A stretch of 24,000 nt of DNA from Lacticaseibacillus baoqingensis. Its GTDB lineage: Bacteria; Bacillota; Bacilli; Lactobacillales; Lactobacillaceae. Position 1 is the first letter of the stretch. Every line of letters starts with the position of its first letter. Positions 2,249 through 5,441 of the stretch are shown in pieces. Location: the NCBI RefSeq assembly GCF_003946165.1, contig NZ_RHOI01000036.1, positions 2,212 to 26,211 of the forward strand, read 5' to 3'. The notes below the pieces were generated by a model. That model had not been told where the DNA came from. It saw nothing but the letters and a program-made list of their open reading frames with translations, and did no database searches. A program made the translations under genes and the position numbers.

Positions 2249-2367
2249 ACACAGAGCGCAGCAAGCCGCACTTAGGCCTGTGGGTAAGGCGGCTTGGGTG
2301 CGGTGCAGTATGCACCGTGACCGAGACGACTTACCTGCAATGCCGTTGTGGTGCGCAACTCGACTAT
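2249..2367 (+). repeat. Long-hairpin intergenic repeat, copy D (in the nrdE 5' leader)
   Basis: Shares ACAGAGCGCAGCAAG..GCACTTAG..TGTGGGTAAGGC.GC.TGGGTGCG and the ..GCGCAACTCGAC end with the copies at 4591-4911. Folds as GTGGGTAAG / CTTACCTGC around an apical CGGTGCA-GTA-TGCACCG hairpin. Confidence 0.75.
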
Positions 2368-2422
2368 AAAACCCCGAGCAAAACCGCGTTTTTCGGTAAC
2401 ACTCGACAAAAGGAGTAACGTC

Positions 2423-4594
2423 ATGGGCCTCAAGTCTATTGATCCAGAACAAGTCACCTACTTCAAACTCAATAATGAAATCAACATCCCCGTCAACGGC
2501 CAGATCCCGCTTAACAAGGATAAAGAAGCATTGGCTGCATTTTTCAAAGAAAATGTTGAGCCGAACACCAAAAAATTTGCCAGCCTCAAAGAACGGCTCG
2601 CTTTTTTGGTGGACAATAATTATTATGAAGCCGCATTTTTAAGCAAGTACACCCCAGAATTCTTACAAAAGCTGACCGACTACCTAGCCGCCCAAGACTT
2701 CCAGTTCCAGTCATTCATGGCCGCTTACAAGTTTTATGCCCAATACGCGTTGAAGACTGACGATAACGAAGAATACCTCGAATCCTTCCCAGATCGGGTC
2801 TTTGCTAACGCATTATTCTTCGCAGATGGCAATGAAGAATTAGCCCTGCGCTTAGCCGACGAAATGATCCATCAACGCTATCAGCCGGCTACCCCATCAT
2901 TTCTCAATGCTGGGCGCGCGCGCCGCGGCGAATTAGTGTCTTGTTTCTTGTTGCAAGTGACTGATGACATGAACGCGATCGGCCGCGCGGTGAACTCTGC
3001 TTTAGAGCTTTCGCGGATCGGCGGCGGCGTGGGGATCACCTTGTCTAATTTGCGTGAAGGCGGCGCTCCGATCAAAGGGATCGAAGGCGCAGCCAGCGGC
3101 GTTTTGCCCGTCATGAAGCTGCTTGAAGATTCTTTTTCTTACTCCAACCAACTGGGCCAGCGGCAAGGGGCCGGCGTCGTTTACTTGAACGTCTTCCATC
3201 CTGATATTATCGCCTTTTTAGGCGCTAAAAAGGAAAATGCCGATGAAAAGTATCGGTTGAAGACCTTAAGCCTCGGCGTGATCGTTCCTGATAAGTATTA
3301 TGACTTGGTGAAAAATGATGAGGACATGTACCTCTTTTCACCATATTCCGTTGAACGCGAATACGGCCAGCCATTTTCTTACATCGACATCACCAAGGAA
3401 TACGACAACATGGTCGCTAACCCGAACATCACCAAGAAAAAGATCCGGGCGCGGGATCTGGAAACCGAGATCTCTAAGCTCCAACAAGAATCCGGCTATC
3501 CTTACATTTTAAATATTGATACCGCCAACAACGCCAGCCCGATCGCCGGCAAGATCATCATGTCCAACTTGTGCTCCGAGATCTTGCAAGTGCAAACCCC
3601 ATCGACTTTGAACAACCGCCAAGAATATGACGTCATGGGCACAGATGTTTCTTGCAACCTCGGCTCGACCAACATCCCGAACTTGATGAAGAGTCAAGAC
3701 TTCGAAAAGTCTGTCGATGCAATGGTGCGGGCATTGACCTATGTCACCGACCATTCTGAGATCGACGTGGTCCCATCTGTGCAACACGGCAACGATCTGG
3801 CCCACTCCATCGGTTTAGGGGCGATGGGCTTGCATACCTATTTTGCCAAGCATCACATGCACTATGGTTCGCCTGAATCGTTGGACTTCACCAACCAATA
3901 CTTCTTGCTGCTTAACTACTACACCTTGAAGGCCTCCAACAAGATCGCACGCGAACGCAAGCAAGTCTTCCACAATTTCGAAGCTTCCAAGTACGCAGAT
4001 GGCAGTTACTTTGACAAGTATCTTCAAGGCGATTGGGGCATCAAATACGATACGGTGAAGGCACAATTTGCCGGCATCCACATCCCGACCAAAGCCGACT
4101 GGGAACAGTTGAAAGCCGATGTGATGAAAGATGGGCTTTACCACCAAAACCGCATGGCCGTAGCCCCAAACGGCTCTATTTCCTACATTAACGACACCTC
4201 TTCTTCCTTACATCCGATCGTGAACCGGATCGAAGACCGTCAAGAAAAAACGATCGGGACGATCTACTACCCAGCTTCCGGTTTGGCTAACGACACCTTG
4301 CCATACTATCAAAGTGCCTATGACACCAACATGACCAAGGTCATCGACGTCTATGCCGCTGCGCAACAGCACGTCGATCAAGGGATGGCGATGACGCTCT
4401 TCATGCGTTCCACGATCCCGGCAGGACTTTATCCATGGAAAGAAGGCCGCACCGACAAGATGACCACGCGTGATCTCAACATCTTGCGCAACTATGCCCA
4501 CGCTAAAGGCATCAAGTCGATCTACTATATCCGGACCTTCACCGACGACGAAGACGAAATCGGCGCCAATGCCTGCGAGAGCTGCTCAATCTAA
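2423..4594 (+). CDS. nrdE: Class Ib ribonucleoside-diphosphate reductase alpha subunit NrdE
   Basis: The listed ORF runs 2348-4594. The ATG at 2423 follows AAAGGAG at 7 nt spacing and gives MGLKSIDPEQVTYFKLNNEINIP, an NrdE-type N-terminus. Contains the active-site NLCSEI motif and a C-terminal CESC redox pair. Confidence 0.95.
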   Translation: MGLKSIDPEQVTYFKLNNEINIPVNGQIPLNKDKEALAAFFKENVEPNTKKFASLKERLAFLVDNNYYEAAFLSKYTPEFLQKLTDYLAAQDFQFQSFMAAYKFYAQYALKTDDNEEYLESFPDRVFANALFFADGNEELALRLADEMIHQRYQPATPSFLNAGRARRGELVSCFLLQVTDDMNAIGRAVNSALELSRIGGGVGITLSNLREGGAPIKGIEGAASGVLPVMKLLEDSFSYSNQLGQRQGAGVVYLNVFHPDIIAFLGAKKENADEKYRLKTLSLGVIVPDKYYDLVKNDEDMYLFSPYSVEREYGQPFSYIDITKEYDNMVANPNITKKKIRARDLETEISKLQQESGYPYILNIDTANNASPIAGKIIMSNLCSEILQVQTPSTLNNRQEYDVMGTDVSCNLGSTNIPNLMKSQDFEKSVDAMVRALTYVTDHSEIDVVPSVQHGNDLAHSIGLGAMGLHTYFAKHHMHYGSPESLDFTNQYFLLLNYYTLKASNKIARERKQVFHNFEASKYADGSYFDKYLQGDWGIKYDTVKAQFAGIHIPTKADWEQLKADVMKDGLYHQNRMAVAPNGSISYINDTSSSLHPIVNRIEDRQEKTIGTIYYPASGLANDTLPYYQSAYDTNMTKVIDVYAAAQQHVDQGMAMTLFMRSTIPAGLYPWKEGRTDKMTTRDLNILRNYAHAKGIKSIYYIRTFTDDEDEIGANACESCSI

Positions 4595-4712
4595 CCAGAG
4601 CGAAGCAAAGCGGTTATAGGAGTGTGGGTAAGGCAGCGTGATGCGTTATGGCGTCAGCCATAGCGTGGCGCGATGACTTATCCGCGACCCCGTTGCTTTG
4701 CGCAGCTCGACG
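4591..4712 (+). repeat. Long-hairpin repeat, tandem copy A (122 nt)
   Basis: Begins at the nrdE stop codon (cTAAccagagcg). Near-identical to copy B. Long imperfect hairpin with apical CGTTATGGC-GTCA-GCCATAGCG. Confidence 0.85.
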
Positions 4713-4833
4713 CTAACCAGAGCGAAGCAAAGCGGTTTTAGGGGTGTGGGTAAGGCAGCGTGATGCGTTATGGCGTCAGCCATAGCGTGGCGCGATGACT
4801 TACCCGCGACCCCGTGCTTTGCGCAGCTCGACG
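4713..4833 (+). repeat. Long-hairpin repeat, tandem copy B (121 nt)
   Basis: Direct head-to-tail repeat of copy A, differing by a few substitutions and one indel (ttatagga/ttttaggg, cttatcc/cttaccc, ccgttgc/ccgtgc). Confidence 0.85.
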
Positions 4834-4911
4834 AGACCAGAGCGAAGCAAGGACGCACTTAGCGATGTGGGTAAGGCAGCCTGGGTGCGTCGCGGCACGC
4901 AGCTCGACGAT
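4834..4911 (+). repeat. Long-hairpin repeat, short variant copy C (~78 nt)
   Basis: Has the same ends (GACCAGAGCGAAGCAAG... and ...GCAGCTCGACGAT). Its interior resembles copy D (GCACTTAG, TGTGGGTAAGGCAGCCTGGGTGCG) but lacks the CTTACCC arm. Confidence 0.7.
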
Positions 4912-4912
4912 A

Positions 4913-4967
4913 GCAAAATAAAACCACTAGGAGCGTCCAAAAACGCCGCCTAGTGGTTTTATTTTGC
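4913..4967 (+). terminator. nrdE terminator hairpin
   Basis: Perfect 17 bp stem AAAATAAAACCACTAGG / CCTAGTGGTTTTATTTT. The T-rich 3' arm is followed by GCTTTC. Confidence 0.7.
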
Positions 4968-4992
4968 TTTCAGGCAGTTTCTCCCACCCATC

Positions 4993-5022
4993 AAAAAAAG
5001 CCGCATGCTCGCGGCTTTTTTT
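4993..5022 (-). terminator. Terminator of the PNPOx-family gene
   Basis: AAAAAAAGCCGC-ATGCTC-GCGGCTTTTTTT. On the minus strand the stem is followed by a U-run. Confidence 0.65.
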
Positions 5023-5075: not shown

Positions 5076-5441
5076 TCAGATCTTTTGTTGAACATCATCG
5101 ATGGTGACGATTAACATCCGCGTCAGCCAAGGAAATTCGGCCTGCTTTTGGTCAAAAGCAGCGCCGTGGTCGACGAATTCGCCAGTTCCATGCACATGGA
5201 AGCCGGCACCAGGGCCGACGGTGCCTTCGACGGCTTTAGAGCCGAAGGTCAGCGTGAGATGATTATCCTGTGGAAAGTCTGCTTCAATGCTATGCATCCC
5301 GGCAGCCGGGATCAATAATTGGTTCTCTTTCAGCGTAATGTACGACATCCACGTATTGACCACATGGGCCGGGTGCGCGTTGATCGTAATGATCGTGACC
5401 GGACCTTCATGCTGCAACACTTCTAAAAATTTCGGATTCAT
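5076..5441 (-). CDS. Pyridoxamine 5'-phosphate oxidase-family FMN-binding (split-barrel) protein
   Basis: 121 aa ORF. AAGGAGG RBS 7 nt before the ATG. Size and sequence pattern (HEGPVTIITI..., IPAAGMHSIEADF) fit small PNPOx-like proteins. Confidence 0.7.
   Translation of the reverse strand: MNPKFLEVLQHEGPVTIITINAHPAHVVNTWMSYITLKENQLLIPAAGMHSIEADFPQDNHLTLTFGSKAVEGTVGPGAGFHVHGTGEFVDHGAAFDQKQAEFPWLTRMLIVTIDDVQQKI

Follow-up and report, generated by a model that had tools for sequence, protein, structure and literature searches.

Tandem hairpin repeats around nrdE of Lacticaseibacillus baoqingensis and a dispersed family of strand-specific intergenic repeats

The nrdE locus and its repeat copies

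The 24,000-nucleotide (nt) stretch of Lacticaseibacillus baoqingensis DNA analysed here (hereafter the window; assembly GCF_003946165.1, contig NZ_RHOI01000036.1, positions 2,212 to 26,211) carries nrdE, encoding the alpha subunit of class Ib ribonucleotide reductase (2423-4594, plus strand; Pfam RNR_N, Ribonuc_red_lgN and Ribonuc_red_lgC), with copies of a hairpin-forming repeat on both sides of the gene. These repeats, and the dispersed family to which they very probably belong, are the subject of this analysis. The gene starts at ATG 2423, preceded by AAGGAG, the first possible GTG (2348) not being used, and ends with the stop codon TAA at 4592-4594, where the downstream array begins. Its 723-amino-acid product is identical to that in GCA_042680485.1, and the closest named relatives are the NrdE proteins of Lacticaseibacillus daqingensis, L. 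absianus and L. kribbianus (88-89% identity); that of L. paracasei is 84% identical.

An earlier note made from the sequence alone had described three tandem units filling the nrdE 3' untranslated region (UTR), each long unit folding into one extended hairpin. The tandem array was recovered by Tandem Repeats Finder at 4591-4880 (period 122, 2.4 copies, 91% matches, score 478). Unit A (4596-4711, plus strand) is full length, with 116 nt between termini and a covariance model score of 95.9 bits, and its RNA fold on the plus strand reaches -59.1 kcal/mol (z -5.1; complement -38.8), with none of 200 shuffles as good. Unit B (4718-4832, plus strand), also full length, has the modal family size of 115 nt, scores 98.7 bits, belongs to the seed alignment A3 described below and folds at -67.0 kcal/mol (z -7.3; complement -48.0), again with none of 200 shuffles as good. 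The pairings listed earlier, GAGC/GCTC, GCAAAGCGG/CCG(T)TGCTTTGC, GTGGGTAAG/CTTA(C/T)CCGC and an apical CGTTATGGC-GTCA-GCCATAGCG, are all present in the minimum free energy structures, in which the difference noted between A and B (T versus C in CTTAYCC) does turn a G-C pair into G-U.

The description of one hairpin per unit holds for A and B and fails for unit C (4838-4908, plus strand), an internally deleted copy whose 5' half comes from another subfamily than A and B and is fused directly to the 3' terminus. Its match to the intact units L131:6764-6876 and L027:1915-2029 (positions prefixed with L refer to the compared loci) runs as far as ...CCTGGGTGCGTCGCGGCAC, after which unit C continues directly with the 3' terminus. 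Alignment to intact subfamily members places the loss at about 45 nt of the 3' arm, because of which its fold is at chance level (-28.4 kcal/mol, z -1.3) and its model score is weak (21.7 bits, E 0.006).

The last conserved base of the array lies at 4908, and the inverted repeat of the predicted intrinsic terminator of nrdE (4909-4971, plus strand) begins at 4909, in agreement with the earlier observation that the array abuts the terminator. The two terminator arms (4909-4931 and 4949-4971) are 23 nt long and 96% complementary and are followed by the T-run TTTTATTTT; the terminator is also present in the fold of the whole 3' UTR (-195 kcal/mol, z -8.1). A second hairpin at 4993-5022, bounded by an A-run and a T-run (AAAAAAAGCCGCATGCTCGCGGCTTTTTTT), probably terminates transcription in both directions, serving the convergent gene at 5076-5441 as well.

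A fourth copy, missing from the earlier count of three, occupies the nrdE leader. This full-length unit (2252-2364, plus strand; termini CAGAGCGCAG ... CGCAACTCGAC) has the architecture of the others with a different apical stem, scores 72.9 bits (E 1e-16) and folds at -56.5 kcal/mol (z -4.1), compared with -43.6 kcal/mol for the complement. It is followed by what reads as a remnant or 'mini' unit (2374-2407, plus strand), consisting of GAGC, a small hairpin and CTCGAC, directly 5' of the Shine-Dalgarno sequence AAGGAG (2410-2415). An equivalent remnant, CCGAGC-CCC-GCAGCTCGAT, is found at the matching position in L131, a related metagenome-assembled genome (MAG). No further copy was detected by the covariance model in the 24-kb window or in an additional 7.5 kb of the contig.

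Upstream of the leader unit, a consensus scan (10/12) predicted an nrdE promoter at 2194-2222 on the plus strand (-35 TTGACC at 2194-2199, a 17-nt spacer and -10 TATCAT at 2217-2222), a block kept upstream of nrdE in three relatives (L003, L004 and L005), which would place the leader unit inside the transcript. In the leader the copies thus lie after the predicted promoter and before the Shine-Dalgarno sequence, and at the 3' end they lie after the stop codon and before the predicted terminator; they are therefore transcribed with nrdE provided that promoter and terminator are real. Overlapping the predicted -10 hexamer is ACACAATATACAGTAT (2204-2219), also kept upstream of nrdE in three relatives, a putative NrdR box. 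The nrdF-nrdI genes (621-2089) are divergent from nrdE and the window contains no nrdH; nrdH lies directly upstream of nrdE in L. zhaodongensis, L. pabuli and L. paracasei (L006, L007 and L008), and nrdF lies downstream in L. paracasei.

Unit architecture and strand-specific pairing

Each unit begins with the invariant 5' terminus CAGAGCGNAG and ends with the 3' terminus CG(C/T)N(A/G)CTCGAC, the two ends being only partly inverted (GAGC...GCTC). The basal stem GAGC/GCUC, flanked by CA.../...GAC, carries a symmetric 3x3 internal loop (5'-GNA / 5'-GCA), above which stands a GC-rich stem of 7-8 base pairs (bp) whose closing pairs are an invariant C-G and a G.U. A K-turn was considered for the basal loop and rejected by inspection, as the G.A/A.G tandem is not in the required position. 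On the 5' side there follow a U-rich bulge of 4-6 nt, often YUUAG, and then the long hairpin, which in the main subfamily (including A and B) holds two 1x1 G.A loops around a 2-bp helix, forming the block UAAG-G-CR-G / A-YG-A-CUUA.

Units measure 112-123 nt from terminus to terminus, most often 115 (49 units), and rare short forms of 29, 54, 71 and 85 nt occur. The shortest, a 'mini' unit at L006:3226-3254 just after the carB terminator, has nothing but a basal stem with its 3x3 loop and a tiny hairpin (ACAGAGCGGAGGCCGGGGCCGTAGCTCGAC). Mutual similarity is below 70% among at least 32 interiors, which all keep one long-hairpin architecture, and in the seed alignment their helical shells recombine as modules, the P2 helices GCAGCC/GGGCTG, GTGGCG/GCGCCA or GCAAAG/GCTTTG being combined with various inner helices. 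The hairpin above the basal module is thus free to vary in sequence and fixed in length. Within arrays, successive units are separated by A-rich linkers of 4-9 nt, most commonly GAAAC.

Folding of the units gave z-scores of -4 to -10. Over 114 units the mean energy was -66.2 kcal/mol on the element strand and -53.6 kcal/mol on the complement, and the element strand was the more stable in 113. The seed alignment A3, composed of 48 gap-free 115-nt units, has 95.1% of its cells paired and both sides changed in 25 of 42 pairs; its covariation score of 0.412 compares with 0.144 for shuffled alignments, none of 500 reaching the observed value, and with 0.04-0.08 for slid registers. A second alignment (A6) of 48 units from other species gave 92.2% paired cells, both sides changed in 37 of 42 pairs and a score of 0.878 versus 0.197, values favoured by the fitting of these units to the structure through the model.

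The pairing is also strongly asymmetric between strands. On the element strand 10.4% of pairs are G.U, compared with 1.7% on the complement, a six-fold asymmetry, and 1x1 mismatches are G.A or A.G in 205 cases versus C.A or A.C in 21. Some G.U pairs are near-invariant (46, 47 and 44 of 48 sequences), and under the covariance model sense copies reach 115-130 bits, compared with 25-43 bits for their antisense shadows. The asymmetries in G.U pairs, mismatches and stability therefore indicate that one strand has been selected as a single-stranded molecule. The earlier note had proposed, from the A/B difference, selection on the sense transcript; the strand specificity it implied extends to the whole family, and the molecule under selection may be the transcript or a single-stranded DNA intermediate.

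Distribution, placement and turnover

A near-exact pattern built from both termini was scanned over contigs of one genome per species and matched at least 116 stretches, 61 of those listed being from Lactobacillaceae. These include, among the matches listed, L. jixiensis (29 blocks of 8 kb), L. daqingensis, L. absianus, L. kribbianus, L. parakribbianus, L. zhaodongensis, L. pantheris, L. songhuajiangensis, L. hulanensis and several MAGs, together with a strain labelled Ligilactobacillus pabuli and a Candidatus Ligilactobacillus MAG. At least 13 genomes are represented, L. jixiensis with at least 64 units. The 55 listed stretches from other phyla were rejected as chance matches, having no hairpin and no strand bias (-43.5 versus -46.2 kcal/mol), and the chance rate of the pattern was calibrated by a viral collection, in which eight matches were found and none formed the hairpin. 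Real matches, among those listed, are therefore confined to a Lacticaseibacillus clade and a few related MAGs.

A looser pattern applied to the Lactobacillaceae loci recovered at least 126 units in at least 78 arrays, of which 44 are single units, 24 doublets, seven triplets, two quadruplets and one quintuplet. The covariance model found about 165 sense-strand units in the same loci, so many arrays are longer than the pattern shows. Arrays adjoin gyrB/gyrA, ldh, tRNA and many other genes, and this presence at many unrelated intergenic sites identifies a dispersed family that is not tied to nrdE.

The spacer between gyrB and gyrA, inside a conserved operon near the replication origin, is occupied in three genomes (L042:1493-1734 in L. 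daqingensis, L027:1667-2153 in a MAG and L121:476-546 in L. jixiensis), and L. daqingensis has a further array after gyrA (L108:6338-6581). A second, unrelated repeat family of about 270 nt, self-complementary and starting GAAGACCACAGCGTA, is present in L. jixiensis and absent from the window; copies lie at L052:1492-1782, inverted at L052:2151-2399, and at about 19 more places in the L. jixiensis loci (for example L028:1146-1411 and L088:1946-2210). This repeat stands directly 3' of many hairpin arrays, making the intergenic repeats of L. jixiensis a mosaic.

Arrays are not randomly oriented. The upstream gene is co-oriented with the array in 55 cases and opposite in 14, and between genes of the same direction 32 arrays are co-oriented versus five (about 86%). 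Correlation with the local GC skew over 8 kb is weak (46 to 32), and in the eight loci where GC skew and gene majority conflict, orientation follows the genes in six, a result that is suggestive at most. Array starts were classified for 62 arrays, leaving out those that merely continue a degenerate unit: 27 lie within 16 nt after a terminator hairpin and T-tract, 12 within 14 nt of a co-oriented stop codon, three abut a divergent gene start and the remaining 20 form an "other" class. tRNA genes precede some arrays, including L117:5198 (in the "other" class) and one in L019 (in the continuation class); the arrays L019:3984-4464 and L117:5150-5435 start 7-36 nt past co-oriented tRNA genes. The 4 nt before units tend loosely to WWAC, and a TA duplication fits some sites and not the common GAAAC-type junctions. 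Two arrays in L097 (3505-3871, plus strand, and 3906-4021, minus strand) face each other, convergent and 35 nt apart.

When the orthologous nrdE loci of six named species and of a further strain were compared, differences emerged at this site. The element is absent at nrdE in five species, L. daqingensis, L. absianus, L. kribbianus, L. pabuli and L. paracasei (L003, L004, L005, L007 and L008). The leaders of the first three are 130-170 nt shorter and lack it, and in L. kribbianus, L. pabuli and L. paracasei unrelated sequence follows straight after the nrdE stop. Where the element is present, its numbers vary: the window has one leader unit and, after the stop, A, B and the broken C-type unit; L131, whose nrdE is 84% identical, has five leader units with the mini remnant and one intact C-type unit after the stop; and L. 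zhaodongensis has four tandem units right after the stop, with the same terminal blocks and wholly different interiors, and none found in the leader. The leader thus holds zero, one or five units and the 3' end zero, one, three or four.

A further locus from the species of the window (L002) has an nrdE 99.1% identical in nucleotides and one leader unit of another subfamily, with identical flanks and termini and an interior that is unrelated, equally self-complementary and similar to that of L131 leader units 2 and 5; after the stop it carries at least the start of one unit, the contig ending inside it at L002:2632. The simplest account of these leader and 3' differences would be that arrays grow, shrink and undergo conversion as their conserved termini recombine. 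In L. pabuli (CP117884), two other very long inverted repeats lie within the 1.1 kb that follow nrdE (L007:12235-12445 and L007:12850-13050); they lack the family termini and were not detected by the covariance model.

Origin of the family and comparison with known systems

Taken with its distribution, folding and orientation, the nrdE array is very probably a local cluster of a dispersed, non-coding family of about 115 nt in the intergenic DNA of one Lacticaseibacillus clade. The earlier note had suggested a structured family of the ERIC, BOX and RUP kind, and had named random orientation, missing covariation and a match to a known MITE (a miniature inverted-repeat transposable element) or insertion sequence (IS) end as grounds for giving this up. 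All three were examined and the results support the repeat-family reading: orientation is biased, the covariance model and shuffles revealed strong covariation in dispersed copies, and no match was found in Rfam, among annotated plasmids and phages or in the ends of the nearby IS605-type element.

The family also appears not to have been described before, as the earlier note had supposed. Rfam yielded zero matches in the window at gathering thresholds and noise up to E 10, and tRNAs only on six other array-carrying loci; the array had no blastn match in annotated plasmids and phages, and no description was found in the literature on palindromic repeats and MITEs of Lacticaseibacillus and Lactobacillus.

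Under this reading, units would reach new sites by a trans-acting mechanism through a single-stranded intermediate, inserting in a polar, A/T-rich-directed manner immediately beyond the 3' limits of genes, after terminator T-tracts, stop codons or tRNA ends. Local recombination between the conserved termini would then lengthen, shorten and reshuffle the arrays, which would explain the differing copy numbers and interiors at one site in close relatives. In the nrdE mRNA the copies would fold into very stable hairpins, whose effect on 3'-end stability or processing, as a 3' exonuclease barrier or a target of double-strand-specific RNase, is most likely generic, in line with proposals for REP, BOX, ERIC and Correia elements (PMC3049150).

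Several points weigh against this account. Mobility is deduced solely from the distribution and polymorphism of the units, because no mobilising enzyme was found near the arrays, no consistent target-site duplication in the 78 array flanks and no pair of filled and empty sites with exact boundaries. The unit counts are lower bounds, the conservation of the termini is partly imposed by a search requiring near-exact termini, and the orientation counts rest on crude calls of open reading frames (ORFs). The strand asymmetry is just as strong behind terminators (-11.9 kcal/mol, 37 of 37 units) as elsewhere (-12.9 kcal/mol, 82 of 83), which argues against selection on each local mRNA, since transcription should be low after a terminator. 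Among rare private transitions, G.U is preferred to A.C by only 18 to 8. The context-independent asymmetry and these transitions thus indicate that much of the signal is inherited with the family.

The search for a mobilising enzyme covered the genes around the arrays. An all-versus-all blastp of 474 ORFs returned housekeeping orthologues only, with no multi-copy transposase near arrays, and no Y1/HUH transposase was found in the sampled array loci, the presence of TnpA in these genomes not having been searched. Inverted copies in L028 enclose ordinary genes only (CBS domain, QueT). A TnpB/IS605 OrfB gene lies in an AT-rich element on the source contig (L001:4637-5821), about 4 kb upstream of nrdF/nrdI of the window; it was rejected as the source of the repeats, as the ends of the element are unrelated to the unit termini. 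An IS110-family transposase gene (L004:15478-16701) lies 256 nt from the repeat unit L004:16957-17071, which may have served as its insertion site, because IS110-type elements target palindromic repeats.

The main rival explanation, a possible though tentative one, is that the units are non-autonomous transposons moving as single-stranded DNA hairpins in the manner of IS200/IS605 PATE or REP/RAYT elements under a trans-acting HUH-type enzyme, in which case the asymmetry and polar insertion would reflect recognition of one DNA strand and the RNA structure would be a by-product. Asymmetry regardless of local transcriptional context, polar insertion by T-tracts, the loose WWAC before units and the lack of an obvious target-site duplication agree with such a mechanism; head-to-tail arrays fit an element whose end recreates its own target, and the conserved base, extrahelical bulges and variable top resemble structure-specific single-stranded DNA sites. 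However, the enzyme is missing near the arrays, the sole nearby IS605-type element has unrelated ends, and orientation tracks gene direction much better than GC skew. In addition, 10% G.U, some of it nearly invariant, is more typical of RNA than of DNA hairpins, and the unit is one long hairpin rather than two subterminal ones.

It is unlikely that the units represent a new type of mobile element defined by structure, moving through a single-stranded RNA or DNA intermediate with fixed polarity to the 3' boundaries of transcription or translation units, for which an enzyme or host factor would read the basal module and stem length and not the interior. Such an element would jointly explain the more than 30 unrelated interiors of constant length, the invariant G.U and G.A pairs, the context-independent asymmetry and the lack of a recognisable transposase.

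It is very doubtful that the units are independent small-RNA genes or processed RNA modules, type III antitoxin-like or CRISPR-like, with a protein partner on the invariant basal loop. Tandem direct repeats, the invariant basal module, strict length and conserved G.A and G.U non-canonical pairs, of a kind that often marks protein-binding sites, would suit this, but there is no promoter-like site in or before the 3' array, no conserved neighbour gene, toxin or cas gene was found, arrays are spread over about 80 sites with varied neighbours, the interiors are self-complementary and not spacer-like, and no Rfam family matches. A CRISPR or type III antitoxin array was likewise rejected for the window, given the neighbours (nrdE and a PNPOx-like gene), the 4-9-nt linkers and the self-complementary interiors.

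A dedicated cis-acting element controlling nrdE mRNA stability, processing or translation, one of the proposals of the earlier note, is highly improbable and largely refuted by the family distribution, for despite copies on both flanks of nrdE, an occupied 3' end in L131 and L. zhaodongensis too, and arrays within the predicted transcript, leaders and 3' ends of nrdE in five related species lack the element, dozens of unrelated genes have it, copy number and sequence vary even where nrdE is 99.1% identical, and one of the three 3' units is broken.

The nrdE copies are thus probably not an nrdE-specific regulatory device, and the tempting reading of a dedicated 3'-UTR regulator is removed as wrong. 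What is documented is an abundant, apparently undescribed repeat family in Lacticaseibacillus, for which there are now clear diagnostic termini and a covariance model. Short-read assemblies are broken by such repeats, as where contig L002 ends within a unit; they shift UTR lengths by hundreds of nucleotides and, by analogy with other repeats, may alter the stability of neighbouring mRNAs, so their annotation matters for the genomics of this group. In this family shape and length, and not sequence, are what is selected, a clean example from nature in which the strand-specific signal is very strong and the placement close to terminators is polar; it is a good system for studying how hairpin repeats without a transposase spread.

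In being multi-copy, non-coding, narrow in range and polymorphic, the family fits the dispersed intergenic structured repeats of the REP, ERIC, BOX, RUP, Correia and bcr1 kind. Some more distant systems share single features. Group IIC introns insert directly downstream of intrinsic terminator motifs (an inverted repeat and T's) in fixed orientation (PMC1702495), and the likeness is one of insertion-site preference only, since these introns are ribozyme retroelements that encode a reverse transcriptase and range from several hundred nt to about 2 kb, and the 115-nt units have no ribozyme domains or protein. Integron attC sites share, in architecture only, the conserved base, extrahelical bases, variable top and strand-specific folding; they were rejected because the unit termini are CAGAGCG and CTCGAC, the stretches between units contain no ORFs, a GTTRRRY / RYYYAAC core, cassettes and an integrase are lacking, and the host group does not fit. 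IS200/IS605-derived PATE elements, by comparison, have two subterminal hairpins and a TnpA partner and insert 3' of a fixed tetra- or pentanucleotide with no duplication; the present units have a loose WWAC before them, no consistent duplication and a single hairpin each.

REP elements are 20-40 nt long with a GTAG head, alternate in orientation within clusters and have a RAYT gene alongside, and their hairpins in mRNA shield against 3'-5' exonucleases. The present family resembles REP/BIME in being extragenic palindromes at gene 3' ends with strand-specific single-strand recognition, but none of the REP size, GTAG head, alternating orientation or RAYT partner is seen; a REP/BIME-RAYT system was rejected because the units are 112-123 nt, head-to-tail and headed by CAGAGCG, with no Y1 transposase in the sampled loci. 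Correia elements of Neisseria and bcr1 of the Bacillus cereus group resemble the present units as transcribed, non-coding long hairpins of 100-155 nt, Correia RNA being cut by RNase III. They have clear terminal inverted repeats and a target-site duplication (TA and TTTAT), whereas here none is definable and insertion is polar.

The ERIC or IRU elements of Enterobacteriaceae are imperfect palindromes in transcribed intergenic regions with orientation-dependent RNA effects, and the present units similarly form one long hairpin from an imperfect palindrome of roughly 115-127 nt. ERIC copies share one consensus and are not known to form direct tandem arrays, and the two differ in taxon and sequence, ERIC lacking the invariant basal GNA/GCA loop module. 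The units have no evident sequence relation to the BOX and RUP modules, no direct sequence comparison having been run. BOX is one A-B(n)-C element, whereas here both termini are present in each unit and arrays string whole hairpins together head-to-tail; a cognate IS has been proposed for RUP and BOX, whereas none was found here; and, unlike BOX and RUP, the interiors comprise more than 30 unrelated types of fixed length. ERIC/IRU and Correia elements are summarised alongside the pneumococcal BOX, RUP and SPRITE repeats by Croucher et al. 2011 (PMC3049150), where the latter three mirror the coding bias, are enriched 3' of coding sequences and are judged parasitic, with likely effects on co-transcribed genes. 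The Lacticaseibacillus family agrees with BOX, RUP and SPRITE in comprising small non-coding repeats of a Gram-positive lactic-acid bacterium, confined to a narrow clade and tightly folded as RNA, with no host function shown, and shares with them the coding-strand bias, enrichment 3' of coding sequences, co-transcription and varying internal module number (PMC3049150).

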